This document shows positions 1,014 to 15,156 of a stretch of DNA of 32,000 nucleotides, piece by piece. The notes beneath the pieces were generated by a model, which saw only the letters and a list, made by a program, of their open reading frames with translations, was not told the DNA's origin and did no database searches. The stretch's first letter is position 1, and each line of letters opens with the position of its first letter. The DNA comes from Hyperthermus butylicus DSM 5456 (lineage in GTDB: Archaea > Thermoproteota > Thermoprotei_A > Sulfolobales > Pyrodictiaceae). The DNA lies in contig NC_008818.1 in the NCBI RefSeq assembly GCF_000015145.1, positions 1,380,001 to 1,412,000 on the forward strand, given 5' to 3'. A program made the translations under genes and the position numbers.

Positions 1014-1790
1014 GTGCAAGTGTTGCACCTCACCATCTACATTCACCCATCCTGCCCTGCCAGCCGCAACCTGGTGCTATACCTCCACGAGAAGGGGCTC
1101 CTTAACCGGGTTGAACTCGTCTCGACGGCACGGCCATCTACATCGGGTTTGTTGAGGGAGGCTGTGTGGAGCGTACCGTGGCTTGTGGGAGAGGGGGTGC
1201 CGCTTGCAACGGACCCCATAGAGCCCGGGGAGGCGGAGCTCATCATAAGGGAGTTTAGGACTACGAGGACCAGCAATCCGCTGGATGATTTCGCTGAGGC
1301 TATCCTCCACAGCGCTTACGCGTCCGCAGTAGCATATCTTCACGGTAGCCTTGAGCCGGTACTGGATTGCGACTTTGTCATGGCTGCTACTAGGGCCAAG
1401 CTGCGTGGTCTGGACGTCTCCCAGGTGCTCCTCGAGGCTGGGCACCGTGCTGCAGACCTCTACGCCGACCTGGAGGACAAGATAATGAGGGCCCTCGGGA
1501 TATCCTATGTACGCGAGCTCTACTGGGCCAGCGGCGGGAGCCTAAGCCGGGAGGAGCTTGTAGAGCTAGCAACACCCATACATGTCGGTGCGTGGCTGAT
1601 AGCCAAGGCCAGCCTTGGCCGGAGCGGGCTCCCCTCGAAGCCGGTGCCGGATAAGGCCAGGCTTGAGAGGCTCGCAAGCTTCGTTAGGAGGGGTGCAGCT
1701 GGCCTGCTTAGGAGGATTGAGAGAGAGTACCAGGAGGTTATGGAAGATGAAAACTACTGGAGGATACTTGAGGAGCACGGGCTAGCCTAG
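1014..1790 (+). CDS. Hypothetical protein; the N-terminus resembles a thioredoxin/glutaredoxin fold with a single-Cys CPAS motif
   Basis: 258-aa ORF with a GTG start. The N-terminal LTIYIHPSCPASRNLVLYLHEKGLLNRVELV has the beta-alpha-beta look of glutaredoxin-like proteins; the rest is helical with no motif I recognise. Its stop shares a palindromic CTAG (1787-1790) with the convergent hemB. Confidence 0.5.
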   Translation: MQVLHLTIYIHPSCPASRNLVLYLHEKGLLNRVELVSTARPSTSGLLREAVWSVPWLVGEGVPLATDPIEPGEAELIIREFRTTRTSNPLDDFAEAILHSAYASAVAYLHGSLEPVLDCDFVMAATRAKLRGLDVSQVLLEAGHRAADLYADLEDKIMRALGISYVRELYWASGGSLSREELVELATPIHVGAWLIAKASLGRSGLPSKPVPDKARLERLASFVRRGAAGLLRRIEREYQEVMEDENYWRILEEHGLA

Positions 1791-2803
1791 AACGGGCTGT
1801 AGCCCTCCCGGAGCCACCGAGCCACGTCAAGCGCATGATAAGTTATCACTATGTCTGCACCCGCCCTCCTTATAGCAGTTATTATCTCCATTGTTACGAG
1901 CTTCTCATCTATCCAGCCCTTCTCAGCAGCAGCCTTGACCATGGAGTATTCTGCGCTCACGTTGTAGGCTGCTAGGGGGTACTGGGGAAACGCCTCCTTA
2001 ACCAGTCTTATAACGTCAAGGTATGCCAGGGCCGGCTTCACCATGAGGATATCCGCTCCCTCCTCGATATCCAGCATCGCCTCCTTAATCGCCTCCATCG
2101 CATTCCTCGGGTCCATCTGGTAGCTTCTCCGGTCGCCAAACCGTGGTGCTGATCCAGCAGCCTCTCTGAATGGGCCGTAGAAGCCGCTGGCATACTTTAC
2201 AGCATAGCTCATAATCCCGACCTCGGTGTAGCCAGCGTCGTCTAGCGCCTCCCTTATCGCTGACACCATACCATCCATCATTCCTGAGGGAGCTACGAAG
2301 TCTGCTCCAGCCTCAGCGTGGGTGACAGCTATGCGGGCGATGACCTCTAGGGTTGAGTCGTTGTCTATGAGCTGTCTCCCGTGCCTTTCAACGGGTATGC
2401 CGCAATGCCCATGGGTGGTGTAGCCGCATATGCAGACGTCGGTGAAGATGGCTGGCTCCCAGCCGAGCTCGCGGCGTATCAGCCTTATCGCAGTGGGCAC
2501 GGGGCCCCGTGGGTCGTAGGCGTAGGTGCCGCGGAGGTCCTTCTTCTCGTCCGGGACAACGCCGAACAATAGGAATGACTTGATGCCGAGGTCTAGTGCC
2601 TCGCGTATAACGTCCACGACCCTCTCCGGGGGATAGCGGTACTGGCCCGGCATGCTGGGGATGGGCTCGGGCTCCTTTATCCCCTCCTTAACGAATATCG
2701 GCATCATGAGCTGGCTGGGCGAAACCAGGGTCTCGGCGACAAGGTCGCGGATCGCCTTGGTGAGCCTTAGCCTCCGAGGCCGGAGCTCAGGGAACCCGGG
2801 CAC
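1787..2803 (-). CDS. hemB: Porphobilinogen synthase (delta-aminolevulinic acid dehydratase)
   Basis: 338-aa ORF. The N-terminus FPELRPRRLRLTKAIRDLVAET, then SMPGQYRY, GIKSFLLFGV, a TDVCICGYTTHGHCG-type metal site, APSGMMDG, YASGFYGPFREAA, DRRSYQMDP and ADILMVKPAL are all classic ALAD/HemB blocks. Confidence 0.95.
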   Translation of the reverse strand: MPGFPELRPRRLRLTKAIRDLVAETLVSPSQLMMPIFVKEGIKEPEPIPSMPGQYRYPPERVVDVIREALDLGIKSFLLFGVVPDEKKDLRGTYAYDPRGPVPTAIRLIRRELGWEPAIFTDVCICGYTTHGHCGIPVERHGRQLIDNDSTLEVIARIAVTHAEAGADFVAPSGMMDGMVSAIREALDDAGYTEVGIMSYAVKYASGFYGPFREAAGSAPRFGDRRSYQMDPRNAMEAIKEAMLDIEEGADILMVKPALAYLDVIRLVKEAFPQYPLAAYNVSAEYSMVKAAAEKGWIDEKLVTMEIITAIRRAGADIVITYHALDVARWLREGYSPF

Positions 2804-3597: not shown

Positions 3598-3952
3598 CCG
3601 GGGGCCCCGAAGGGGCTCCGCGCGGGTAGGGCCGGGGGGCTCGCCCTCCCCCCACGCCCGAAACGGGCGCAATGCGGGGGCCAGTAACCCGGCTTGGGGC
3701 TGTAGGCCCCCGCGGCAGACCCAGCCGACCAATGACCCCCGTCCCGCGGGGCCGGCGGCGGCGGAGCCCCCTCCGGAGGGAGGGCGGCTACCGCCCTTGC
3801 CGGGGGAACCAGGCCAGGCCCGGAAGGGAGCAACCTAACCCCGGACGCCCGGCGTTCGCGGGGGCGCGGGGTGAGGCAACGGCTGGGCCCGCTGCCGCCG
3901 AGGGTCTACAGCCGCAAGCCGGGGGCCGCGCGGGCCCCGGGAGAGCCCCGTG
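3598..3952 (+). ncRNA. ffs: Signal recognition particle RNA (archaeal 7S / SRP RNA); ends approximate
   Basis: A very GC-rich, ORF-incoherent stretch. It contains the universally conserved SRP domain IV (helix 8) motif CCAGGCCCGGAAGGGAGCAAC at 3814-3834 (compare E. coli 4.5S CAGGUCCGGAAGGAAGCAGC). A helix-6-like hairpin CCCCCTCC-GGAG-GGAGGG lies just upstream. The 5' GGGGCTCCGCGCGG (~3611-3625) is complementary to the 3' CCGCGCG...GAGCCCC (~3926-3949), closing the molecule at an archaeal-typical length of about 300-350 nt. Confidence 0.85.
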
Positions 3953-5075: not shown

Positions 5076-7583
5076 ATGAAGCGTCTTCTATTAGCTAGCA
5101 TTATAGTTGTGACTCTCCTTCTATCGAGTGCTGCACCAGCCTTCGCGGCTCAGTTTGGCGATGAGCTGGTAGCTAAGGTTCAGGAGCTAATGCAGAGTGA
5201 CAAGGTGAGCCCACAGACAAAGCTGTGTATAAGCTGCCACATACAATACACGCCAGGCATTGTATACGAGTGGGCCAACAGCAAGCATGCAATGTACACG
5301 CCAGCCGAGCTAGCAGAACTCTACAAGGCCATTGGTGCCCCGGAGTGGGCTGACAAGATAGCCGACAAGTTCAAGGACTATCCGTACGTCGTGGGCTGCT
5401 ACGAGTGTCACGGTATGTTCAAGGAGGCCGATAGGCCCGACGTGATCGAGAACCACAACGGCTACAAGATAGTGACCATTGTCACCAGGAAGGACTGCAG
5501 CCAGTGCCACCCCAAGGAGAGCGCAGAGCTGAGCTGGACCTGGCACGCGACCGGTGCTGCTATGTCGCCGTTTAAGCCCTGGTACCAAGGTATTCTGGAG
5601 TGGGCCAAGAGCCAGGGTGCAAACCCGTTCGGCGACGAGCAGGCCAAGCAGCTTTACGAGAAGTACCTCCCACCATACCTGACCAAGCAGCGCGGTGTAG
5701 ATGACGTCAACTGGGACTTCTACAAGGAGATCGCAAAAGCTGTAATGGACTACTTTGAGACCGGCCAGGAGAACGACATAATAAAGATACTCAAGGAAGC
5801 AACCGGTATGATAACACCATATGACATGGACTTCAAGAACTGGATAAGCCCGCTATGGCCGGCCAGCGGCGTGCTCAACACAACAATACTAAAGAAGCTG
5901 AATATCGAGGTAACCGTAACAGCTATGGGTGAACAGACAGCAACAATAAACAACATCATGGAGCACCCAATGTTTAGGAACGGCTACTTGTACCACGCAT
6001 GTTTCGAGTGTCACGGCAGCATAGTTGTTCCATACAAGAAGGAGACCGTTAACATCAACGGCGTACAGGTTAGCAGGGTAGCCCTATGGGGCTGGCCAAA
6101 CAACGGCGCGGCCCGTATAGACCCCGACGGTAGCCTCGGTACATGTACAGCTTGCCACCCGAGACACTTGTTTAGTGTGAAGCAGGCACGCGAGCCATGG
6201 ACCTGTGGCCAGTGCCACCTAGGCTATGACCACCCACACATTGAGATCTATGAGGAGAGCAAGCACGGCAACATCTGGGACGCCTATGGCCATGAGTGGA
6301 ACTGGGAGCAGATACCATGGCGTGTAGGCGTCGACTTCAACGCGCCAACCTGTGCCACATGCCACATGAGCACCCTGGCAGACGCTAATGGCAACATACT
6401 AGTGCCGGGCACTCACGACCTAGCAAGGAGGCTGGTATGGGATCAGATGCACTTCTTCAGCCACCCGAAGCCAGTGATACCAGACAAGCTCCAGGTAAGC
6501 TTGTTCCTTGGCGGCTTTAGCGTGCTAAAGGGCAAGATGGAGGACGTCTACGCAGCAGCCGAGAAGATACCAGAAAGCTCGCCATACAAGTACCCTGTCT
6601 TCATGGGCCTAAAGATCGTCGACGAGGTGAAGCCAGGCGAGCCAGGATTCCCAAGGCTGCTAAAGATAGAGTACACTGGCGAGCTAAAGGAGCACCGCGA
6701 GGAGATGAAGGCTGTATGCAAGCTATGCCATAGCAGCCAGTGGGTGGACAACTTCTTCCGCACAGCTGACCAGAACATCATTGACTATGACGTAGTTGCT
6801 AGGTTTGCATTTAGCCTGCTACAGCTAGCCTGGAATGAGGGCATACACGATAACACGAACCCGCTCGACGAGTACATGGAGATAATGTGGTACTACATCT
6901 GGCACCATGAGGGCCGCCGCTGGAGGAACGGCGTCTTCATGATGGGTCCAGACTTCGCCCACTGGTTTGGCATCGTTGACACTGTCCTGGACAAGCTAGG
7001 CAGGATGACTAACTACCTCTACATAGCGATGAAGGTGAGGCTGCTAGAGACCGAGCTGCAGGCGCTAAAGCAGGCTGCTGCTGGCGCACCATACACGCCA
7101 GAGCTAGCGGCACAGATAGCAGAGCTACAGAAGGAGCTGGAGACCCTCAAGCAGCAGCTAGCAGCTCTAGAGGCGCAGGTGCCAGCGCTAAAGAGCCAGA
7201 TACAGAGCCTAGAGGCTGGCTACAGCAGCGTTGAGGGCGAGCTAGGCACGCTGAAGACTGATGTCAGCACGCTGCTACAGCAGCTAGACGAGCTGAGCAA
7301 GCAGCTGGAGGCTCTAAGCCCACAGGCCAAGGATATACAAGCGCTAGTCTCTAAGATAAAGGAGATAGCTGTGCAGCTAGAGCAGCTGGGCCAGAAGACC
7401 GAGGCAGCGAGCAGCAAGGCTAGCCAGGCGCTAGCAACTGCTGAGGAGATTGGCAGCAAGATCGACGAGCTAAGCAGCAAGATAGACAGTGTATCCGCAA
7501 CGGCCTACACCCTGGGCGCTATAGCGCTAGCAGCTGCTGTAATAGCTCTAGGCTTATCGATACTCTACAGCCGCCGCAGCTAG
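5076..7583 (+). CDS. Octahaem c-type cytochrome of the hydroxylamine oxidoreductase (HAO) family, with a signal peptide, a C-terminal coiled-coil stalk and a TM anchor
   Basis: There are eight CxxCH motifs: CISCH, CYECH, CSQCH, CFECH, CTACH, CGQCH, CATCH and CKLCH. Their contexts are HAO-family-typical: EWANSKHA after haem 1, GTCTACHPRHLFS, CGQCHLGYDHPHIEIYEESKHG, APTCATCHM. I place the start at ATG 5076 (MKRLLLASIIVVTLLLSSAAPAFA|AQ, preceded by GGAGGT) rather than the track's 5016. The C-terminus is ~150 aa of heptad-like sequence, one TM helix, then RRS. Confidence 0.85.
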   Translation: MKRLLLASIIVVTLLLSSAAPAFAAQFGDELVAKVQELMQSDKVSPQTKLCISCHIQYTPGIVYEWANSKHAMYTPAELAELYKAIGAPEWADKIADKFKDYPYVVGCYECHGMFKEADRPDVIENHNGYKIVTIVTRKDCSQCHPKESAELSWTWHATGAAMSPFKPWYQGILEWAKSQGANPFGDEQAKQLYEKYLPPYLTKQRGVDDVNWDFYKEIAKAVMDYFETGQENDIIKILKEATGMITPYDMDFKNWISPLWPASGVLNTTILKKLNIEVTVTAMGEQTATINNIMEHPMFRNGYLYHACFECHGSIVVPYKKETVNINGVQVSRVALWGWPNNGAARIDPDGSLGTCTACHPRHLFSVKQAREPWTCGQCHLGYDHPHIEIYEESKHGNIWDAYGHEWNWEQIPWRVGVDFNAPTCATCHMSTLADANGNILVPGTHDLARRLVWDQMHFFSHPKPVIPDKLQVSLFLGGFSVLKGKMEDVYAAAEKIPESSPYKYPVFMGLKIVDEVKPGEPGFPRLLKIEYTGELKEHREEMKAVCKLCHSSQWVDNFFRTADQNIIDYDVVARFAFSLLQLAWNEGIHDNTNPLDEYMEIMWYYIWHHEGRRWRNGVFMMGPDFAHWFGIVDTVLDKLGRMTNYLYIAMKVRLLETELQALKQAAAGAPYTPELAAQIAELQKELETLKQQLAALEAQVPALKSQIQSLEAGYSSVEGELGTLKTDVSTLLQQLDELSKQLEALSPQAKDIQALVSKIKEIAVQLEQLGQKTEAASSKASQALATAEEIGSKIDELSSKIDSVSATAYTLGAIALAAAVIALGLSILYSRRS

Positions 7584-7625
7584 CCGGAAAAGCTAGCTCC
7601 CCCGAGGAGCTGTTTAGACCGATTA

Positions 7626-7630
7626 TTTTT
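7626..7630 (+). terminator. Oligo-T tract, candidate archaeal transcription terminator after the octahaem cytochrome gene
   Basis: GATTATTTTTACC lies ~40 nt after the stop at 7583. Archaeal RNA polymerase terminates at oligo-dT tracts. Confidence 0.35.
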
Positions 7631-7726
7631 ACCTCCATAACGCGTTACGCTCACCTCCTCTTCCCTCCCCCTAAGCGTATTAGGTGTGGATCCGTCTGCT
7701 TGTTACGGCTTGTGAGGGACTAGTAG

Positions 7727-9244
7727 ATGCAGCTGGCCCGCTACGTGGCGGCTATGGTGTTGTTGGAGTTCATTGTCGGCCACGTGGTTCTTGCCGGTGT
7801 TGTGGAGGGTTTGTTGGCTAGGGACTTCTATAGGCTTGTTGTAGTGTTTAGAGAGCCTCTGGACGGTGATGCATGGAGTGTCTATGTGGCGTTTAGTGGG
7901 CCGGGGGCAGGTGTGAATTGTAGCGGGCAGCTGCGCCCTAACCTGTACTACCTGCAGACCAAGACTATCTCCCGCGGCTTGGTGGTGGCACCACTCTACT
8001 ATGTTCTCAGCAGCATCTGTCCCAGGGTGCTCTCGGAGTTACAGCTCCTAGCTGGAAGTCGTGGCGATGAGCTGCTGGTTGTCGAGCTGGAAGCCCCCCA
8101 GGGCTACTCTGTTAGGAGTGGCATGGACTGGCGCGGGTTCGGCAAAGCTGGCGGTCCCTACACTCTCCCGCTCAGCGCTTTTGTGAGATACTACGTGTTT
8201 GACGGCGTTGTAGTTGCTGGTGAGGAGTATCGGGTGGTTGACGACTCGGCGCTAAACCTTACGGTGGTGGCTCTGCAGGCCTCGAAGGAGACTGTTGAGT
8301 ATACAGTGGAGAGTCTTGTGGCTGTGCGGGATGCGGTTGCAGAGTGGCTTGGCCCTAGCCCCCGCTCGCCGGTTGTACTCGTAGTTGCCGGGCCGGGAGA
8401 GCACCAGTACCTGCCGCCCGGCACCGCCCACAGCATGGGGGGTGTGGTCTACGTCAAGCTGGGTGTGGTGGAGAACCTCCCATGGCTCGTCCACACGGTG
8501 GCACACGAGGCTCTCCACGGTTGGTTCAACCACGGCATGCTCTACGGCGATTTCAGCTTCCAGGAGGCGGCGGCAGAGTTCCTAGCGGTGAAGGCCCTGC
8601 ACGACCAGAGGCCGAGCCTCTACGAGCTTGCAGCTAGCTACCTCGAGTACATGCTGGCAGTGGACGAGCAGTATGCTGTGTGGATGCGTGTCAACGCTGC
8701 GCTATGGCATGCAGGGCTGAGAGCCTGCGGGGAGGACTTGTACATGTACGCGGTCCGGGAACTGTACAATAGGGTTATCACGGATGGGTTCTCGGGGCCC
8801 GTAAGCCTGCTAGACGTGGCCTCGCTAATGGTCGAGAAGGCGTCCACACAGTGCAGGGAGGCCCTAGAAGCGATGATAGGCTGGGTACTCCTAGCACCTA
8901 GGAGTGGGACTAGCGAGTGGCCATACATAGACACCGGCAGCTACAATGCCGGGGCTGGAACATCAGCCATAGACAGCCTTGGTACGCATGTAGAGCCGGT
9001 GGTCCCCTACAACGCCACCCTGCCGGGGATGGAGCAGTCCGAAGCTGGTAGTGGAGAGAGCGGGGCAGCCCAGAGCCAAACGGGGGCACGGGCTCTACAT
9101 CCCGCGGGCCAGCCGGAGCCTACTCCAGGCGCATGTGGGGGATCCGGGAGCCCTACCTACTGGCTAGTGGTTGGCTTCGTGGCAGGGCTGGGGGTAGCCT
9201 CCCTGGCCTGGATTGCTGCTAGGCGGCGTAGGGGGAGGAGCTAG
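7727..9244 (+). CDS. Membrane-anchored extracytoplasmic protein with a gluzincin-like HExxH motif (putative zinc metallopeptidase)
   Basis: 505-aa ORF with a hydrophobic N-terminal signal/anchor (VAAMVLLEFIVGHVVLAGVV). VHTVAHEALHGWFNHGMLYGDFSFQEAAAEFLA resembles the M1/MA-clan HExxH(Q/G)WF...E arrangement. The C-terminus is a Gly/Ser/Pro/Ala-rich linker, a TM helix (YWLVVGFVAGLGVASLAWIAA) and RRRRGRS. Confidence 0.55.
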   Translation: MQLARYVAAMVLLEFIVGHVVLAGVVEGLLARDFYRLVVVFREPLDGDAWSVYVAFSGPGAGVNCSGQLRPNLYYLQTKTISRGLVVAPLYYVLSSICPRVLSELQLLAGSRGDELLVVELEAPQGYSVRSGMDWRGFGKAGGPYTLPLSAFVRYYVFDGVVVAGEEYRVVDDSALNLTVVALQASKETVEYTVESLVAVRDAVAEWLGPSPRSPVVLVVAGPGEHQYLPPGTAHSMGGVVYVKLGVVENLPWLVHTVAHEALHGWFNHGMLYGDFSFQEAAAEFLAVKALHDQRPSLYELAASYLEYMLAVDEQYAVWMRVNAALWHAGLRACGEDLYMYAVRELYNRVITDGFSGPVSLLDVASLMVEKASTQCREALEAMIGWVLLAPRSGTSEWPYIDTGSYNAGAGTSAIDSLGTHVEPVVPYNATLPGMEQSEAGSGESGAAQSQTGARALHPAGQPEPTPGACGGSGSPTYWLVVGFVAGLGVASLAWIAARRRRGRS

Positions 9245-9419
9245 GCGCGACTATGAACAGGATTATCCTCTTGGGTCTGCGGCGGGACTGACTGGCTGAA
9301 GAGGGGAACTTTTTCGGGCTAGTGTTTAATACTCAACAGCTACTGCCACTACCTCGTCATGGCGAAAGTGTAGTGTTAGCAAGTAACAGACCATTGTTGA
9401 CTCCTTGGAGGTGCCTAGC

Positions 9420-10106
9420 ATGTGCCAGTACTCCCGTGCAGAGTGGAGCCTGGCAGCTTTAGCCCTAGCCGCGGTGGTAACACCCCTACTCTACGCTGCA
9501 ACGGCGAGCGCCCAGGACGCCACGCAGCTCTATCCGTGTACCACTTGCCACAATGTCCTAAACCTAACCGGCGACAGGAAGGCAGTGCCATTCCACGGGA
9601 TAGACCTTACCGTGGGGGCACACCGTGGGCTCTACTGCTCCAACTGCCACGTCGCGCCTGTGATGCAGGAGCTTGTTAATGGTGCCGAGGTCTACATTCC
9701 AGGGTTGCACACAATGGAAGAGCTCATGGAGACCAATAAGGTGTGCGCCGTATGCCATCCACGAGAGTTTGCGGACTACCAGTACTTGGTGCATGGTAAC
9801 AAGACCTATGTCTGCCCAGGCGGCAACGTGACGAAGGTTATAGGTTACAAGGGCGTGACCTACGACTTCCACATCTGCAGCGATTACCGAAACCTAGAGA
9901 CGGTACCCGCCAGGGCCTGCGTGGAATGCCACAACCCTCATACACCAACCATGCCACCGGTCAGTATCCTGCCGGTACCCTCTGAGAGGCCAGCACCACC
10001 CGACGAGTCAAGCATTGCATACGGTACAGCAGCTGCTGTTATAGGCGGGCTAATTCTCGCCATAGGCGCCCTCATCCTCCCCCTAGGTCACACGCGTAGC
10101 CGGTAA
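9420..10106 (+). CDS. Tetrahaem c-type cytochrome, signal peptide plus C-terminal TM anchor
   Basis: Four CxxCH motifs (CTTCH, CSNCH, CAVCH, CVECH). The start is placed at ATG 9420, with GGAGGTG 7 nt upstream; the track start is TTG 9405. Signal peptide WSLAALALAAVVTPLLYAATASA|QD. The C-terminus is AAAVIGGLILAIGALILPLG followed by HTRSR. Confidence 0.85.
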   Translation: MCQYSRAEWSLAALALAAVVTPLLYAATASAQDATQLYPCTTCHNVLNLTGDRKAVPFHGIDLTVGAHRGLYCSNCHVAPVMQELVNGAEVYIPGLHTMEELMETNKVCAVCHPREFADYQYLVHGNKTYVCPGGNVTKVIGYKGVTYDFHICSDYRNLETVPARACVECHNPHTPTMPPVSILPVPSERPAPPDESSIAYGTAAAVIGGLILAIGALILPLGHTRSR

Positions 10107-10125
10107 AGCTGGGGTGGAGGCCGGG

Positions 10126-11194
10126 ATGGTGGAGAGGAGCAGCCCAGGAAAAAACAGTACCCAGGTTGATCGGTCTAGGAGGGAATTCCTCAAGGCAGCT
10201 ACTGTTGCAGCTAGCGTCTCGGCAATCTCCTTCCTAGCTGTGAACCGGGACGAGCTGGATAGAGTCCTGGTGCCGGTTAAGCTTGGGGACCTCCTAGCTG
10301 AGGCTGAAGAGGGCGAGAGCGAACTCGAGCGCAGGGCTAGGAGGAAGGAGGAGGAGCTGAGGAAGTGGTGCCAGGCGGAGGCCGAGAAGATATGTGGCGA
10401 GTACGGTGAGGACTCTGACGCTTGTAGGGAGGCTAGGAAGCGCTGCGAGATGATAAGGGTTAAGGCTACGGGGCCCCGGAAGGGAGCCCGCTACGCCATG
10501 GCCCTTGACATTAACAAGTGTATAGGGTGCCGCCGCTGCGCCTACGCTTGTGTCATGGAGAACAATCAGGCGAGAAACCTGGGGATAGAGTGGATCAGAG
10601 TACTAGAGCTGCCCAGGGAGGGGGAGCTAGAGCTACTTCACGCCGACATGTACTACGCCGAGGCCCCCAAGGAAGGACAAGGTCTACGTGCCAGTAGCAT
10701 GTATGCACTGCGAGAACCCGCCGTGTGTCATGGTTTGCCCGGTTAGGGCTACCTGGAAGGAGCCCGATGGCATTGTAGTGATTGACTATGACCGCTGCAT
10801 AGGCTGTAGATACTGTATAACAGCATGTCCCTACGGTGCACGCCGCTTCAACTGGGCCAAGCCCTATGTGCCAGTGACAGAGCTAAACCCCAACATGCAC
10901 ATACTCGGCAACGTGCCACGCCAGATACACGTCGTGGAGAAGTGTACCTGGTGCATACAGCGCACCCGCGATGGCGGCGTACCGGCGTGCGTCGAGGTCT
11001 GCCCTGTTGGTGCGAGAGTCTTCGGAGACCTCAACGACCCTGAGAGTCCGATACGCCGCGTCCTAAGAGAGTACGGTGGCTTCGTATTGAAGCCCGAGGC
11101 TGGCACCAAGCCCAGATTCTTCTACTTCTTTGGCCCCAAGCGTACACCTCCACGCGAATCCACGGAGACAAGGGCAGCTCAGGGACAAGGGTAG
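10126..11194 (+). pseudogene. Tat-exported 4x[4Fe-4S] ferredoxin-type subunit (NrfC/PsrB/ActB2-like), interrupted by a +1 frameshift at a C5 run (10664-10668)
   Basis: The first frame (to 10746) carries the twin-arginine signal SRREFLKAATVAAS and cluster motif CIGCRRCAYAC. The second frame, open from 10631, carries CMHCENPPCVMVCP, CIGCRYCITACP and CTWC..ACVEVCP. Deleting one C from GAGGCCCCCAAGG restores a continuous ...YYAEAPRKDKVYVPVACMHCENPPC... The start could be GTG 10114 or ATG 10126, the latter with GGAGG upstream. Confidence 0.75.
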
Positions 11195-11218
11195 ACCTCT
11201 CCGAGGGGGTGTGCCTGG

Positions 11219-12475
11219 ATGACGCGTAGCGGTGGCTTCCTAGACACGATAAAGTACGTTATCCGGGAGGCGCTACTAACTGGTAGCCCACGCTACTACA
11301 TGGCATTCTTGGGCCTGCTGCTGGTAGCAGCGTACGGCATCTACCTCTGGATATTCGTCCAGCATGCCCCGATATTCCTCGGCAAGGATGAGGGAGGCCT
11401 AATACTCACCAACCTCAGCGACACTGTGCCATGGGGGATCTACATATCGTTCTTCGTGTTCTGGGTCGGAGTGGCAGCGGCAGGCATAATGTTCGGCATA
11501 GCAGCATACGTATTCGGGGACAAGGAGTTCAAGAAGGTAGCGGTACTCGGCGAGGTACAGGCGGTAGCAGCAATAATAACCGTGCTGACACTAATCATGG
11601 TCGATGTCGGTAGGCCGTTCCGCGCGCTAATACTGCTACCGCAGCTGCCAAACCTAAAGTCGATGCTAGACTGGGACTTCATAGTGCTAACCACCTACCT
11701 AGCACTAAATCTGATAGGTGTGCTGGTAACAGTGCACTACTACCGCCAGGACAAGCCGCTACCCAAGAAGTTCATAGTGCCATTCATAATCATAGCGGCG
11801 CCCTTCGCGATAGGTATACACACTGTGACAGCATTCATATCGCAGGCACTAACAGCTAGGCCTATCTGGAACAGCCCACTACTCGCACCACGCTATGTTG
11901 CAACAGCATTCGCTAGTGGACCAGCCATACTGCTAATAGCACTATACCTCGCCGAGCGCTACATAGACGGTTTCAAGGTAGACTTCAGCGTCTACAAGAA
12001 GACTCTATACGTAATAGTAGGCTCGCTGATAGTAGGCCTATACTTCACCTTCAGCGAGATTCATGAGATATTCTGGTACACCACTGAGTCTATGAAGAAG
12101 GCGCAGGCTGAGGTGCTATTCTTTGGCTACCACGTGCCATACCTAGCGATACTAGTGTGGCTCTGGATAGGCCTAGGCATAGCGGCAGTAATCCTAGGCA
12201 TACTGCCACGGGTACACAATACGAAGAGGGGCATACTCTTAGTCTCGGCAATAACGGTGATAGCAGTGGTGGCAGAGAAGACGATGACGATAATCATACC
12301 AGGATACATACCAGGAAGCCTTGGCGAAATACGCCCATACTACCCGACACCGCTAGAGATAGGTATAACGATCGGCGTACACGCGCTAGGCATACTAGTC
12401 TACCTGCTACTCGCAAGGCCAGCGCTGAAAGCAGTGATAACCCACTACTACAAAGGCGGCAGTGTACACCACTAA
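11219..12475 (+). CDS. NrfD/PsrC/ActC-family polytopic membrane subunit (quinone/quinol-interacting)
   Basis: 418-aa highly hydrophobic ORF with about 10 predicted TM helices. The family-typical N-terminal block is ...TNLSDTVPWGIYISFFVFWVGVAAAGIMFG. It sits immediately downstream of the NrfC-like gene, which is the usual pairing. Confidence 0.85.
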   Translation: MTRSGGFLDTIKYVIREALLTGSPRYYMAFLGLLLVAAYGIYLWIFVQHAPIFLGKDEGGLILTNLSDTVPWGIYISFFVFWVGVAAAGIMFGIAAYVFGDKEFKKVAVLGEVQAVAAIITVLTLIMVDVGRPFRALILLPQLPNLKSMLDWDFIVLTTYLALNLIGVLVTVHYYRQDKPLPKKFIVPFIIIAAPFAIGIHTVTAFISQALTARPIWNSPLLAPRYVATAFASGPAILLIALYLAERYIDGFKVDFSVYKKTLYVIVGSLIVGLYFTFSEIHEIFWYTTESMKKAQAEVLFFGYHVPYLAILVWLWIGLGIAAVILGILPRVHNTKRGILLVSAITVIAVVAEKTMTIIIPGYIPGSLGEIRPYYPTPLEIGITIGVHALGILVYLLLARPALKAVITHYYKGGSVHH

Positions 12476-12643
12476 CAACAGCCATGAAGTGGAAAACCCT
12501 ACTCCCCTCACGGTGTTTCTAGATGTTTTCACACGCGTACAACGCCGCGATGAATACCGAAAACATACACATGGTGGGCTCTCGGGTAGAGTGTAGGGGA
12601 TTCCCCAAAGGGAGAGGCAGGCCAGGATGGGGGTGGGCACTGC

Positions 12644-13246
12644 ATGCGTGACCGCGCCTCGGCGCCTGTGTTACTTACAGCGGTACTCGTACTAGCACTA
12701 GCATCCATAGGTGCTGCCGCACTATCCGCGGAGGAGGCTGAGAAGCTATTCCAGTCGAGCGGTTGCACGGGCTGCCATAACGGTGTAGTAGCGCCAGACT
12801 TTCAGGGCACCATAGCAGTCATTAGGGAGTGGGCATCAAAATATGAGACCCTCGACGAGGCTGTGGCTGCAGAGGCTCCCAACTTTAAGATGTTTAATAA
12901 TGCTAAGAGCTGGGATGAGCTAATGAGCTCGATGCCGGGAATAACACCTGAGCTCAAGGATTACTTTGCAAGGGTTTTCGAGGAGGCAAAGACTGGAGCA
13001 GTACCAGTCCAGGAGCAGCCAGCAGGTGAAACCACCGAACAGCCAGTGCAGCCGACAACACCGGTGGTGACGCAACCAAAACCCAAGCCGGCGGTTAACG
13101 TCACGAAACTGCCAGAGGTATCGGCTCCAAACCCCTCAGCGCAGGCAGAATCACTAGTAAAGACAGGCCTACCGGCAGGCGTAGCAGTCCTCATAACAGC
13201 AATAGTAATCCTGGCAGCCTTCACAAAGAAGGCCAGGCAGCACTAA
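12644..13246 (+). CDS. Monohaem c-type cytochrome (class I-like) with a Pro/Thr-rich linker and a C-terminal TM anchor
   Basis: Signal peptide (VLLTAVLVLALASIGAAALSA). A single CTGCH lies near the mature N-terminus and a candidate distal Met is in MSSMPG. The linker is PVQEQPAGETTEQPVQPTTPVVTQPKPKP, followed by the TM helix GLPAGVAVLITAIVILAAF and KKARQH. Confidence 0.8.
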   Translation: MRDRASAPVLLTAVLVLALASIGAAALSAEEAEKLFQSSGCTGCHNGVVAPDFQGTIAVIREWASKYETLDEAVAAEAPNFKMFNNAKSWDELMSSMPGITPELKDYFARVFEEAKTGAVPVQEQPAGETTEQPVQPTTPVVTQPKPKPAVNVTKLPEVSAPNPSAQAESLVKTGLPAGVAVLITAIVILAAFTKKARQH

Positions 13247-13262
13247 CCCAGACCCCCCACTA

Positions 13263-13268
13263 TTTTTT
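13263..13268 (+). terminator. T6 tract, candidate terminator after the monohaem cytochrome gene
   Basis: CACTATTTTTTACAAC lies 17 nt after the stop at 13246, in the short convergent spacer. Confidence 0.4.
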
Positions 13269-13296: not shown

Positions 13297-15156
13297 CTAG
13301 GCTTTGTATATGTGGAGCCTTCTGTTGTCGATTTGTATCGTTGCCAGCTCCAGTACCTTGTCGGGATCGTTTTCTGCTGGGTAGTCTAGACTGATTATGG
13401 ATGCACCCAGGCCCTTCAAGGCTTCCAGCAGTTTTGCCACGGCTCTAGGTAGGAGGTATGCATATGCCGTGTCTGCCCGGCGCGGCCTGAACACGGCCAG
13501 GTCGGATACTACAGTGTGCGCCAGGGGGTTGTCTCTCAGCCTTCTATGGGCCTCTACTGCTAAGGTCTCGTCGAGCTCTAGGCAGATGGTGTGCATTCCC
13601 CGTTCCGCGGCCTTGGCTGCCACGGTGGCTGTGCCGCAGCCCGGCTCATAGTATATGGGCTGCCGGTTTCCGGCCCTAGCTGCAGCCATGGCTTCCACAA
13701 GGTCTAGTATCGTGTCCACGATATCGCTGCTTGTTGGAACGTAGGGCGAGAGGCTACCCGCAGCATCCATTATGGAGGCAAAGGCGTCGTAGAGTAGTTG
13801 TATTGTCCTACCAAGCTCTAGCTCGTCCAGTACAAGCTCATCTGATTCCATGGGGTCGGTGGGAAACCGCTCCTCCCCACCCTTGCGTGTCGGTGGCCTG
13901 TCTCTCGTCATCCCCCCACCCCCTGGCTGTTCCGTGTCTGCTAGCTTCCCTAAGAGCTTCTGGAGAGCACCTCCCTCTACTATGCGGCGTAGCTTGTTCT
14001 CGTGCACCCGGTAGGCTTTGCGGATCCAGCTGGGCTGGCCCTCCAGGCTCCCACTGCATGCTAGGCCTATGCCACAAGCCTTGTCCATAAACTCGGTCCA
14101 GGAGAGACTCTCGCCCCTCGCCGATGAGAGGTAGTGGTACTCGTGGAGCGTAGGCCGTACCGCCACCGGCCGCCGAAAACCGAGCCACTCTAGGCAGCAC
14201 GTCTTGCCAGGCTGGTACCAGCGTGTCAAGCCCGGAGCATCGGGGCGGAGCGTGTCCTTGCAGGCGGAGTATACCGCGCCATACCGGGCTGCTAGTGCTG
14301 CGAGCGCAGTGTGCATCTGGAGCCTCCATGGACTCGTGGGGTGGAGGAGGGGCTCCCGGCCAGGCTCCTCGCCGAGCTGGTAGGGCTCCCAGTTCCACCT
14401 CCTCCAGTCCATGCCTAGCAGTTTGTAGAGCCTCTCAAGGCCCTCCCTCGTCTCGCGCAGCGGCTCACCTATGACGCCCCGGGCGCCCCTCTCCAGGGCC
14501 TCCTCCGCCGCCCAGAGGTGCTCCTCCTCTAGGCCGGGTATGAGCGGCTGAACCCTCACCACCACTGGCACCCTGTGGCCCACGAGGTGCTCGAGCGCTT
14601 CCAGCCTCGCCTCAACTGGTGGGGCTCCAGGCTCGAGCAGTACCGCTACCCGGCTACTGTAGGGTATGGTGAGCTGCACGATGAGGAGGCCGTGATCAGC
14701 AAGGGCTAGGAGGAGAGACTCTAGCTCGGGGTCGCGGCGCGGATCCCCCTTTGTATTCAGCACTATTGGCACCTTGTGGCGGAGCGCGATACGCAGCAGC
14801 CTCTTAATCACAGGGTGGAAGGGCCCTCTAGGCGGCTGGAGCGGGTCGCTGAGCGTGGCGAGTCGGAAGAATGGCTTCGGCTCCCTTAGCCTCTGGGCAA
14901 GCTTCTCGAAGAGCTTTGGAAGCCAGGGCTTCGCCTGCGACTTGCCGTGGGGGCCACGGTACCAGCGAGCGTAGCAGTAGACGCAGCCATAGCTGCAGGT
15001 CGTGAAGGGTTCCAGACGCAGTATAGAGTAGCACAGCGAGGAGATATAGTTGCTAGGCTTGATTACAAACTCTAGCCACTCAACCACATCATACCAGCCC
15101 GGTATGAGAATAGCAGCACCATAGCTAATTAGGCTATAAGTCTGGCAACAAGTCAA
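13297..15156 (-). CDS. Fusion protein: SplB/COG1533-like radical SAM domain (N-terminal) plus class I SAM-dependent methyltransferase-like domain (C-terminal)
   Basis: 619-aa ORF. The N-terminal LRLEPFTTCSYGCVYCYARWY contains the CxxxCxxC radical SAM cluster motif in the context typical of the 'DNA repair photolyase' SplB-like group. The C-terminal ~170 aa has Rossmann motif I (IYYEPGCGTATVAAKAA) followed by an acidic beta-2 end (HTICLELDE). Confidence 0.75.
   Translation of the reverse strand: MTCCQTYSLISYGAAILIPGWYDVVEWLEFVIKPSNYISSLCYSILRLEPFTTCSYGCVYCYARWYRGPHGKSQAKPWLPKLFEKLAQRLREPKPFFRLATLSDPLQPPRGPFHPVIKRLLRIALRHKVPIVLNTKGDPRRDPELESLLLALADHGLLIVQLTIPYSSRVAVLLEPGAPPVEARLEALEHLVGHRVPVVVRVQPLIPGLEEEHLWAAEEALERGARGVIGEPLRETREGLERLYKLLGMDWRRWNWEPYQLGEEPGREPLLHPTSPWRLQMHTALAALAARYGAVYSACKDTLRPDAPGLTRWYQPGKTCCLEWLGFRRPVAVRPTLHEYHYLSSARGESLSWTEFMDKACGIGLACSGSLEGQPSWIRKAYRVHENKLRRIVEGGALQKLLGKLADTEQPGGGGMTRDRPPTRKGGEERFPTDPMESDELVLDELELGRTIQLLYDAFASIMDAAGSLSPYVPTSSDIVDTILDLVEAMAAARAGNRQPIYYEPGCGTATVAAKAAERGMHTICLELDETLAVEAHRRLRDNPLAHTVVSDLAVFRPRRADTAYAYLLPRAVAKLLEALKGLGASIISLDYPAENDPDKVLELATIQIDNRRLHIYKA

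Follow-up and report, generated by a model that had tools for sequence, protein, structure and literature searches.

Two conserved gene units, a tetrahaem–ferredoxin–NrfD–monohaem module and an HAO-family octahaem cytochrome with a peptidase-like partner, at a cytochrome locus of Hyperthermus butylicus

The question raised by this locus is whether a group of cytochrome genes in the archaeon Hyperthermus butylicus serves a single electron transport system and, if so, in which direction and to which acceptor the electrons would run. The locus lies in a 32 kb stretch of the H. butylicus genome (the window, meaning the whole stretch of DNA that was analysed), where six genes on the plus strand encode an octahaem cytochrome c, a protein with an HExxH motif, a tetrahaem cytochrome c, a four-cluster ferredoxin, an NrfD-family membrane subunit and a monohaem cytochrome c. 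The Pyrodictiaceae and Ignicoccus grow at 90–113 °C, are not known to have a bc1 complex and contain abundant c-type cytochromes of unsettled role. The six same-strand genes had been proposed in an earlier note on this DNA, and their content and coordinates were reproduced by the analysis, except that the gene of the iron-sulfur (FeS) protein is not intact. The locus consists of two conserved units and not of one six-gene unit, with the tetrahaem, ferredoxin, NrfD and monohaem genes forming the first unit (the module), and the octahaem and HExxH genes forming the second. Judged from sequence and from analogy with known systems, the module might be a quinol:cytochrome c oxidoreductase that feeds a reductive octahaem enzyme, for which nitrite, nitric oxide (NO) and hydroxylamine would be the likeliest substrates, and we give this reading about an even chance of being right. 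The genes and clusters have already been noted in relatives, and in this species, in papers from 2008 to 2021; new here are the split into two units, the anatomy of stalk and tether, the identity of the peptidase and its conserved place behind the octahaem gene, the bacterial relatives linked to NapA-like genes and the frameshift in the ferredoxin gene.

Scanning genomes with an NrfD alignment gave 27 loci from archaea and 16 from bacteria, onto which the window proteins were then mapped by tblastn. The six-gene order is not conserved as one unit in the relatives, where a four-gene operon and an octahaem–peptidase pair were observed instead. The four-gene operon is syntenic in 27 archaeal loci, and in the window it comprises the tetrahaem (9405..10106), ferredoxin (10126..11194), NrfD (11219..12475) and monohaem (12644..13246) genes, with intergenic gaps of 7–24 bp from the tetrahaem to the NrfD gene. 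The tetrahaem gene is located upstream of the FeS gene in all archaeal loci with sequence available (23/23), and the monohaem gene was found in 22 of 25, with L014 and two Ignicoccus-type loci, L027 and L029, lacking it. The second unit comprises the octahaem gene (5076..7583) and the HExxH gene (7727..9244). A homologue of the latter directly follows the long-stalk octahaem gene in five of five Pyrodictiaceae loci (the window, Pyrodictium delaneyi, Pyrofollis, L048 and L049, with a gap of 5 bp in L049), and the octahaem and peptidase genes therefore represent a conserved pair.

The two units adjoin or share an island in 10 of the 31 archaeal loci, while no adjacency was observed in the other 21. 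Besides the window, in which an octahaem gene lies within 10 kb of the module, this is seen with differing gene order and orientation in L015 (upstream), L021 (opposite strand), L022, L023, L025 and L026 (all downstream) and L030 (a paralogue), and both units stand in one island in P. delaneyi and Pyrofollis. In P. delaneyi, Pyrofollis and L049, the octahaem and peptidase genes are followed by genes for an HTH_10 regulator, a thioredoxin and CcmF/A/C/B (five or six ccm genes), and a gene for a polyferredoxin of ~490 aa follows the ccm block in Pyrofollis and L049. The module comes next after this block in Pyrofollis, and the L049 island could be followed only to the end of its sequence, before the module. 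In P. delaneyi, the module follows the ccm block (PMC8105010). The separating block spans 14545-22124 in L001, 14461-22341 in L047 and 13968-22269 in L049, whereas only 160 bp (9245-9404) separate the units in the window; the ~10 kb regulator/ccm block is absent at this H. butylicus site. Since the octahaem gene and the module are adjacent in some loci, in several orders, and apart elsewhere, their linkage is recurrent and not universal. Orthologues of both units were also found in Pyrolobus fumarii (67% and 80% identity). In addition, a cytoplasmic polyferredoxin-like protein of ~480–500 aa, with 20–24 Cys and Fer4 domains, is often encoded beside the archaeal module, as in L026 (6565-8013, minus strand), L050 (12205-13701), L014, L020-L023 and L025, and is not encoded in the window.

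The octahaem gene encodes a protein of 835 aa with eight CxxCH motifs and an N-terminal signal or transmembrane helix, which matches an H. butylicus entry, ‘multiheme c-type cytochrome’, with 100% identity. All eight motifs are invariant among 33 homologues. In a phmmer search of the PDB, Ignicoccus IhOCC (4QO5) was the best match (E 4e-79), followed by HAO, HDH and HAOr entries with E values from 1e-10 to 2e-19, and the Pfam family Multi-haem_cyto was matched with 79 bits (cut-off 21.9). An AlphaFold2 (AF2) monomer model had a predicted local distance difference test (pLDDT) score of 77.7, and Foldseek retrieved with it, at E ≤ 1e-3, only 4QO5 (E 1.5e-23) and HAO-family entries. The protein is a member of the HAO family by both fold and sequence, and not of NrfA, ONR, OTR or MccA, which agrees with the family that the earlier note had assigned to it.

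After haem 6, the octahaem protein carries Asp385-His386 (‘GYDHP’), invariant in 33 archaeal and bacterial homologues and aligned with ‘GPDHP’ of Kuenenia HAOr, while IhOCC has Asp-Val at this place. By comparison with NeHAO, we take this to be the distal Asp-His pair near the catalytic haem. Seven non-motif His are invariant (71, 157, 364, 386, 397, 447 and 610) and three are nearly invariant, which in number would be compatible with the seven bis-His haems and one five-coordinate catalytic haem by which the HAO family is defined (PMC8042395). Local alignments to NeHAO and KsHAO span residues 355–440 only, short of the region of the cross-linking Tyr. IhOCC has been placed in the HAO/HDH clade and is regarded as a nitrite reductase with eight haems and without P460 (PMC9250108), and HAOs in which the cross-link is missing function as reductases (PMC8042395). 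The spacer between haems 3 and 4 (window 5511-5999, residues 146–308) measures 119–173 residues in the archaeal octahaem proteins versus 83 in bacterial HAO-like ones, and is mostly helical in the model, with pLDDT >85 up to residue ~250 and ~60 at residues 250–270.

Behind the haem-bearing part, residues ~641–809 (6996..7502) show hydrophobic occupancies of 0.75–1.0 at heptad positions a and d and match coiled-coil families of Pfam and NCBIfam, near-continuous helices run from residue 554 to 834 in the AF2 model, and residues 812–830 (7509..7565) form a hydrophobic segment with a hydropathy of 2.38. The protein is thus predicted to be a haem-bearing head on a coiled-coil stalk of ~165 residues with a C-terminal membrane anchor. 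The stalk ranges from 164 to 203 residues in Pyrodictiaceae and from 100 to 129 residues in metagenome-assembled genomes (MAGs) of other Desulfurococcales, while neither stalk nor anchor is found in I. hospitalis-type (Ignicoccus hospitalis) octahaem proteins or in most bacterial ones; the anchor is kept in the Pyrodictiaceae orthologues. A trimeric stalk would agree with the coiled coil, and the enzyme is probably trimeric. A shorter octahaem paralogue (564–598 aa, 31–36% identity to the long-stalk type) was also observed, adjoining the long-stalk gene in L048 (7010-8806, minus strand) and near the module in L030 (6678-8372). Lineages with both the short and the long gene therefore have two HAO-type enzymes, like I. 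hospitalis.

The second member of the pair is a protein of 505 aa with the motif HEALH at residues 260–264 and transmembrane helices at both ends. No Pfam or NCBIfam family was matched at E ≤ 0.01, and its 12 homologues are all from Pyrodictiaceae, with H260, E261, H264 and E280 invariant in the motif HTxAHExxHGWFN...E. Its AF2 model (pLDDT 78.5) gave M61 (7XYO) and M1 peptidases (ERAP1, IRAP and F3) as the top Foldseek matches, with E values from 8e-10 to 1e-7 and template modelling (TM) scores of just 0.37–0.45; the GxMEN exopeptidase motif is not kept, the matching stretch being ‘HSMGG’, without the Glu. From the model, the protein is best described as a membrane-anchored, M1/M61-like zinc-peptidase fold and not as an electron carrier, and it may process or service the octahaem cytochrome. 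The motif and membrane anchor read by the earlier note are retained, with the fold and the conserved tie to the octahaem gene now added. Its suggestion that the gene order echoes the bacterial hao-orf2-cycA-cycB cluster applies to positions only, for the middle gene has a peptidase fold and no search gave a cytochrome c554 signal for the tetrahaem protein. Proteins of ~720 aa encoded behind the octahaem gene in Thermodiscus-type loci were considered as homologues of the HExxH protein and rejected, with no BLAST similarity and no HExxH among them.

Within the module, the tetrahaem cytochrome (Hbut_1391, 233 aa) has a C-terminal transmembrane anchor, four CxxCH motifs and five further invariant non-motif His, which are enough for four bis-His haems. 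Its profile gave marginal PDB matches to NrfA and ONR only, and none to ActA, so that no family is assigned; the NrfB model scored 24 bits (cut-off 184). The monohaem cytochrome (200 aa, CTGCH) maintains C41, C44, H45 and M97 invariantly, and its profile matches Aquifex c555 (7e-11 overall, ~3e-3 per domain) and c552, although the single sequence had no Pfam match. These matches identify it, at the sequence level, as a class I cytochrome c, and a Pro/Thr/Val-rich linker of ~55 residues precedes its C-terminal anchor. Each of the three cytochromes has helices of the signal or anchor type, and no other open reading frame (ORF) of the window contains CxxCH.

The P. fumarii orthologue of the monohaem protein (L051 11327-12193) is a tandem class I duplication with two CxxCH, i.e., a dihaem protein. 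Kletzin et al. 2015 suspected an APE_1719-like cytochrome, their ‘cluster 30’, in ‘an unidentified electron transport complex’ of Pyrolobus and Hyperthermus, and we infer that the P. fumarii dihaem protein is this cytochrome. An ammonium transporter gene and a P-II gene are located 3 kb downstream of the P. fumarii module (L051 15140-16751). In addition, the tetrahaem gene of Pyrofollis and of one MAG is preceded by a divergently oriented gene (L050 7120-7839 and L011 1214-1921, both minus strand) for a Reeler/‘choice-of-anchor V’ protein, which has a single CxxCH, is anchored at its C-terminus and probably represents the spondin-like type that Kletzin et al. described for Igni_0579/1052.

The ferredoxin gene of the module is split by one extra C in a run of five (C5, 10664-10668; comparison with 12 orthologues) into two overlapping frames, 10114/10126-10746 and 10688-11194, of which the 206-aa N-terminal piece is listed in GenBank as a protein of its own (ABM81216). 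Deletion of one C restores a ferredoxin of 355–359 aa, reading ‘...YYAEAPRKDKVYVPVACMHC...’ / ‘...YYAEAPRKDKVYVPVACMHCENPPC...’, that is colinear with 12 single-ORF orthologues of ~350 aa and contains the twin-arginine translocation (Tat) motif SRREFLK, 16 cluster Cys in four groups and four extra Cys. The description of a Tat-exported 4x[4Fe-4S] NrfC-like protein in the earlier note is therefore right as to the Tat signal and, after repair, the 16 cluster Cys; the frameshift had been missed. Judged by how the Cys are distributed, neither fragment by itself could bind its clusters. A programmed frameshift was set aside, as the run is a plain C5 with no sign of a slippery or structured context and the gene is a single ORF in 12 of 12 orthologues; an error in sequencing or a recent mutation explains the extra C more simply. 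The four extra Cys lie in an N-terminal extension that separates the Tat signal from the first cluster motif (window 10369-10446; C-x7-C-x9-C-x6-C, residues 86/94/104/111), which is not present in the bacterial relatives checked and brings the total to 20 Cys versus the 16 needed; they could form two disulfides or an additional metal site.

By family score, the repaired ferredoxin is closest to DsrO (NCBIfam NF045797, 198.2 bits), without reaching the curated cut-off of 200, followed by QrcC and HmcB, and its solved relatives are Thermus PsrB (2VPW, 3e-42), ArrB (6e-40) and ActB (2e-36). No molybdopterin domain was found in its 355 aa. The NrfD subunit (418 aa, ~10 hydrophobic transmembrane helices, presumed to hold the quinone/quinol site) is 100% identical to a H. 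butylicus entry and matches Pfam PF03916 with 127.4 bits (E 1e-36, cut-off 25.8). Its best family is DsrP (NCBIfam NF045798, 243 bits), again under the curated cut-off (350), with QrcD and HmcC next; a Woeseiaceae relative, L034, passes that cut-off with 402 bits. In the PDB, the NrfD profile matched only ActC of alternative complex III (ACIII; E 2e-14), and PsrC was not matched. With DsrO and DsrP scores under their cut-offs and a match to ActC, the module is a generic NrfCD-type unit of the 10-helix DsrP/ActC kind and not Dsr, Nrf or ACIII. The likeness to ACIII or NrfBCD drawn in the earlier note thus stands for the subunit logic, ActC being the only solved NrfD match, while in sequence the pair is nearest to DsrO/DsrP.

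No molybdopterin subunit, NrfA or NapC/NrfH-type partner was found in the window by tblastn with two molybdopterin queries, CxxCH/CxxCK scans and Pfam searches of the flanking ORFs, as had been noted before. The CxxCK scan gave a single match, in a minus-strand ORF of 73 codons without CxxCH, and hence no NrfA candidate. An FeS/NrfD pair without a molybdopterin partner is found both in the window and in 27 of the 28 archaeal module loci, the exception being Pyrofollis, where a divergent molybdopterin enzyme of 1278 aa is encoded 3.3 kb from the module. The relatives differ between the domains in this respect, for the pair goes with a molybdopterin subunit of NapA type in bacteria and not in archaea. 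The tetrahaem–FeS–NrfD trio flanks a NapA-like subunit (897 bits versus a cut-off of 904) in nine of the 16 bacterial loci, namely L033, L035, L037-L040 and L041-L043, from Myxococcales/Polyangiales and an uncultured proteobacterium, and in L041 (8207-14614) it also flanks a NapB-like four-haem cytochrome. Flanking NapA- and NapB-like genes, the trio sits where the quinol dehydrogenase of a periplasmic N-oxyanion (nitrate) reductase is expected, and by gene content these loci look like a nap variant with an NrfCD-type quinol dehydrogenase replacing NapC or NapGH.

These observations suggest how the module might work. Its likeliest role is that of an outer-face quinol:cytochrome c oxidoreductase, a functional analogue of NrfBCD or of a stripped-down ACIII, in which electrons would pass from quinol at NrfD through the four [4Fe-4S] clusters and the four bis-His haems to the tethered monohaem cytochrome and on to the octahaem head, and the head would reduce a small acceptor at the outer face, most plausibly nitrite, NO or hydroxylamine. 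The Tat motif and the signal or anchor helices of the cytochromes give a topology that fits electron transfer at the outer face. P. fumarii reduces nitrate to ammonia (PMC3156397), and together with its possession of both units, the NapA-linked bacterial trios favour a flow from quinol to an outer-face reductase. If true, this reading would explain both the conversion of nitrate to ammonium by Pyrolobus without NrfA and the passage of electrons across the archaeal pseudo-periplasm.

Several points weigh against it. The stalk places the head ~20 nm or more from the membrane-proximal tetrahaem protein, so that direct transfer is doubtful, and the tethered monohaem shuttle that would bridge this distance is speculation, with the monohaem gene not beside the module in L014 and the Ignicoccus-type L027 and L029. 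No octahaem gene lies within ~10 kb of the module in L007, L008, L014, L027, L028 and P. fumarii L051, and Igni_1359, the I. hospitalis orthologue, stands alone. H. butylicus and Ignicoccus are described solely as sulfur reducers, and nitrite respiration is no known trait of them. Moreover, with its frameshifted ferredoxin gene and without the regulator/ccm block, the locus could be decaying here, and the ccm clustering in relatives could reflect shared maturation or regulation and not partnership.

The strongest of the alternatives, although itself unlikely, follows from these last observations and holds that the locus is a decaying relic in a mainly fermentative H. butylicus, with a truly frameshifted ferredoxin, a lost regulator/ccm/polyferredoxin block and no functional complex. 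The one-base insertion divides the cluster-binding Cys between two ORFs, the deposit annotates two proteins, and no intact version of the H. butylicus ferredoxin was found in a collection of 15 billion public proteins, while the HTH_10 gene and five or six ccm genes of P. delaneyi, Pyrofollis and L049 have only 160 bp as their counterpart in the window. The gene is broken as deposited, and unless sequencing introduced the extra C, this strain may have no active module. However, the lesion is a single one, all other residues of the ferredoxin, including the 20 Cys, are conserved, the other five genes are intact, and ccm genes may be located elsewhere in the genome. Errors in the sequence are hinted at by a second H. 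butylicus gene, one regarded as essential, that likewise carries a frameshift in the deposit (PMC2678158). Whether the H. butylicus system is alive or a relic turns on the frameshift in the ferredoxin gene.

A reversal of the proposed flow appears improbable. In that case, the module would be a cytochrome c:quinone reductase of the Qrc, Hmc or DsrJOP-like kind, and the octahaem protein, mainly an abundant carrier at the outer face, would pass electrons from the uptake hydrogenase through the tetrahaem protein, the FeS protein and NrfD to quinone. The best family scores, DsrO/DsrP, then QrcC/QrcD and HmcB/HmcC, all belong to complexes that take electrons from periplasmic cytochromes. In vitro, the native hydrogenase of Ignicoccus reduced Igni_0955 and was less effective with Igni_1359 (PMC4429474), which also counts against the flow from quinol to an outer-face reductase; Igni_1359 is among the most abundant proteins of I. 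hospitalis (PMC3149612), and a NiFe hydrogenase is encoded 6 kb from its gene. Nevertheless, the DsrO/DsrP scores stay under the curated cut-offs, neither a DsrM/DsrK-type partner (cytochrome b and CCG-domain FeS protein, respectively; no Pfam or NCBIfam match among the window ORFs) nor a hydrogenase was found in the window, the invariant Asp-His pair at the catalytic haem would be superfluous for a mere carrier, and in bacteria the related trios are accompanied by a terminal reductase of NapA type and not by a donor.

To a similarly low degree, the two units might be neighbours without being partners, drawn together by shared maturation, haem supply or a common regulator while the module and the octahaem protein serve separate pathways. 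The ccm genes, thioredoxin and HTH_10 regulator share the island in relatives, and in the window hemB (delta-aminolevulinate dehydratase, haem synthesis; 1787-2803, minus strand; Pfam ALAD, E 5e-139) lies 2.3 kb upstream of the cytochrome genes. The 21 of 31 archaeal loci without adjacency and the molybdopterin enzyme near the Pyrofollis module point the same way. Against this, very few c-type cytochromes are encoded in these genomes, so that few other partners are available, and adjacency recurs in at least four gene orders, which is hard to explain without selection.

Little probability is given to the octahaem protein being an extracellular outlet, in which the stalk would lift the head toward the S-layer for direct contact with insoluble Fe(III) oxides or S0. 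The distribution of the stalk is suggestive, as it measures 164–203 residues with an anchor in Pyrodictiaceae, is shorter in other Desulfurococcales and is lacking in the S-layer-less I. hospitalis. P. delaneyi reduces ferrihydrite by direct contact, its octahaem orthologue Pyrde_0496 was found in haem-stained bands, and its monohaem protein Pyrde_0485 was more abundant on ferrihydrite (PMC8105010). Yet Pyrde_0496 was found on both nitrate and iron, the iron-specific protein is the other octahaem cytochrome, Pyrde_0784, the conserved residues of the catalytic pocket favour a small-molecule substrate, and iron reduction is not reported for H. butylicus. A composite picture, to which we attach a similarly slight probability, is an envelope-spanning chain in Pyrodictiaceae, with a trimeric head on a ~25 nm stalk at S-layer height, a tethered class I shuttle, a minimal NrfCD-type ‘complex III’ and the M1-like peptidase processing or releasing the head. 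If true, it would represent an archaeal route across a wide pseudo-periplasm to soluble N-oxides or solid acceptors, and would identify the ‘unidentified electron transport complex’ postulated by Kletzin et al. for the APE_1719-like cytochrome.

A class I cytochrome with His/Met ligation is an unlikely carrier to the very low-potential S0/H2S couple. Weakest of the alternatives, and very improbable, is the idea that the tetrahaem–FeS–NrfD genes belong to a ‘bacterial-type’ sulfur or polysulfide reductase, in which the octahaem protein or another subunit would reduce polysulfide, thiosulfate, tetrathionate or sulfite: although Podar et al. 2008 called Igni528-530 (NrfD, FeS and four-haem proteins) a bacterial-type polysulfide reductase and found the cluster ‘also present in Hyperthermus butylicus’ (PMC2614490), Thermus PsrB is the best solved relative of the ferredoxin, the host organisms reduce sulfur and multihaem enzymes are able to reduce polysulfide (PMC13510729), no molybdopterin PsrA/SreA subunit accompanies the module in archaea, separate and complete Mo sulfur reductases exist in H. 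butylicus (Hbut_0371-0373; PMC2678158) and I. hospitalis (PMC2614490), the NrfD profile did not match PsrC, and P. fumarii has the module yet does not grow with sulfur (PMC3156397).

In the flanks of the cytochrome island, an archaeal signal recognition particle (SRP) RNA is encoded between hemB and the island (3619-3932; Rfam RF01857, 146 bits) and accounts for a stretch with 67% G+C and few ORFs; no tRNA genes were found in the window. Downstream, a gene on the minus strand (13297-15156) converges on the monohaem gene and encodes a fusion of 619 aa, in which a radical-SAM domain of the PA0069 family is joined to a methyltransferase-like region at the C-terminus; no tie to the cytochrome genes was seen at other loci. 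T5–T6 tracts were observed 3′ of the octahaem, peptidase and monohaem genes (7626-7630, 9310-9314 and 13263-13268), and a TATA-like box, TTTAATA, ahead of the tetrahaem gene (9325-9331). They fit three transcription units, i.e., octahaem gene, peptidase gene and four-gene operon, which is a weak hint from sequence motifs.

Compared with known systems, the octahaem protein shares eight CxxCH in HAO order and the HAO fold with IhOCC (Igni_0955, 4QO5; TM score 0.73 on the target), Igni_1359, epsilon-Hao and Kuenenia HAOr (6H5L), and is 56% identical to Igni_1359. Its Asp-His after haem 6 is like that of HAOr and the bacterial HAO-like proteins, whereas IhOCC differs by Asp-Val; the ~165-residue stalk and anchor set it apart from the I. 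hospitalis and bacterial proteins, and its spacer between haems 3 and 4 is 160 residues long versus 83 in bacteria. Ignicoccus-type cytochromes were purified and surveyed by Nass 2014 and Kletzin 2015 (PMC4429474), in line with what the earlier note says of HAO-like cytochromes purified from Ignicoccus. Hao is also listed in the Pyrodictiaceae core genome in a 2026 paper. At the level of the locus, the P. delaneyi genes Pyrde_0485-0496, named a ‘putative membrane respiratory complex’ by Kashyap & Holden 2021 (PMC8105010), are orthologous (octahaem 78% and NrfD 85% identity) and include the same tetrahaem–FeS–NrfD(–monohaem) operon. The units abut directly in H. butylicus, have HTH_10 and ccm genes between them in P. 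delaneyi and are apart in I. hospitalis, and the ferredoxin gene is frameshifted in H. butylicus, unlike its counterparts in P. delaneyi and Igni_0528-0530.

With DsrMKJOP (its DsrJ-DsrO-DsrP half), Qrc and Hmc, the module has in common a cytochrome, an FeS protein and an NrfD-type subunit, and the best family scores (DsrO 198 and DsrP 243 bits). It differs from DsrMKJOP in scores under the 200 and 350 bit cut-offs, in a bis-His tetrahaem protein versus the trihaem DsrJ, and in the missing dsr context. E. coli NrfABCD likewise combines a multihaem reductase, a small multihaem carrier, an NrfC-type ferredoxin and an NrfD-type quinol dehydrogenase, and a weak NrfB signal of 24 bits was obtained, whereas a pentahaem NrfA with CxxCK has no counterpart here, the catalytic protein being of HAO type, and NrfC and NrfD are not the best-scoring families. 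The closest non-archaeal homologues are the NapA-linked bacterial trios (L033-L043), with the same gene order and identities of 58–66% for the C-terminal half of the FeS protein and 33–39% for NrfD; they differ in having a partner of the molybdopterin nitrate reductase type and not an octahaem one, and a ferredoxin without the archaeal four-Cys N-terminal extension. Finally, ACIII (ActABCDEF) resembles the module in its multihaem subunit, four-cluster FeS protein, 10-helix NrfD-type subunit and monohaem cytochrome c, while the H. butylicus module is without the ActB1 molybdopterin-like domain, the second NrfD (ActF) and ActD, and has four haems versus five in ActA, no detectable similarity to ActA and a monohaem cytochrome anchored by a C-terminal helix. 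If the quinol oxidoreductase reading is true, the module would be a minimal, ancestral-looking relative of ACIII.

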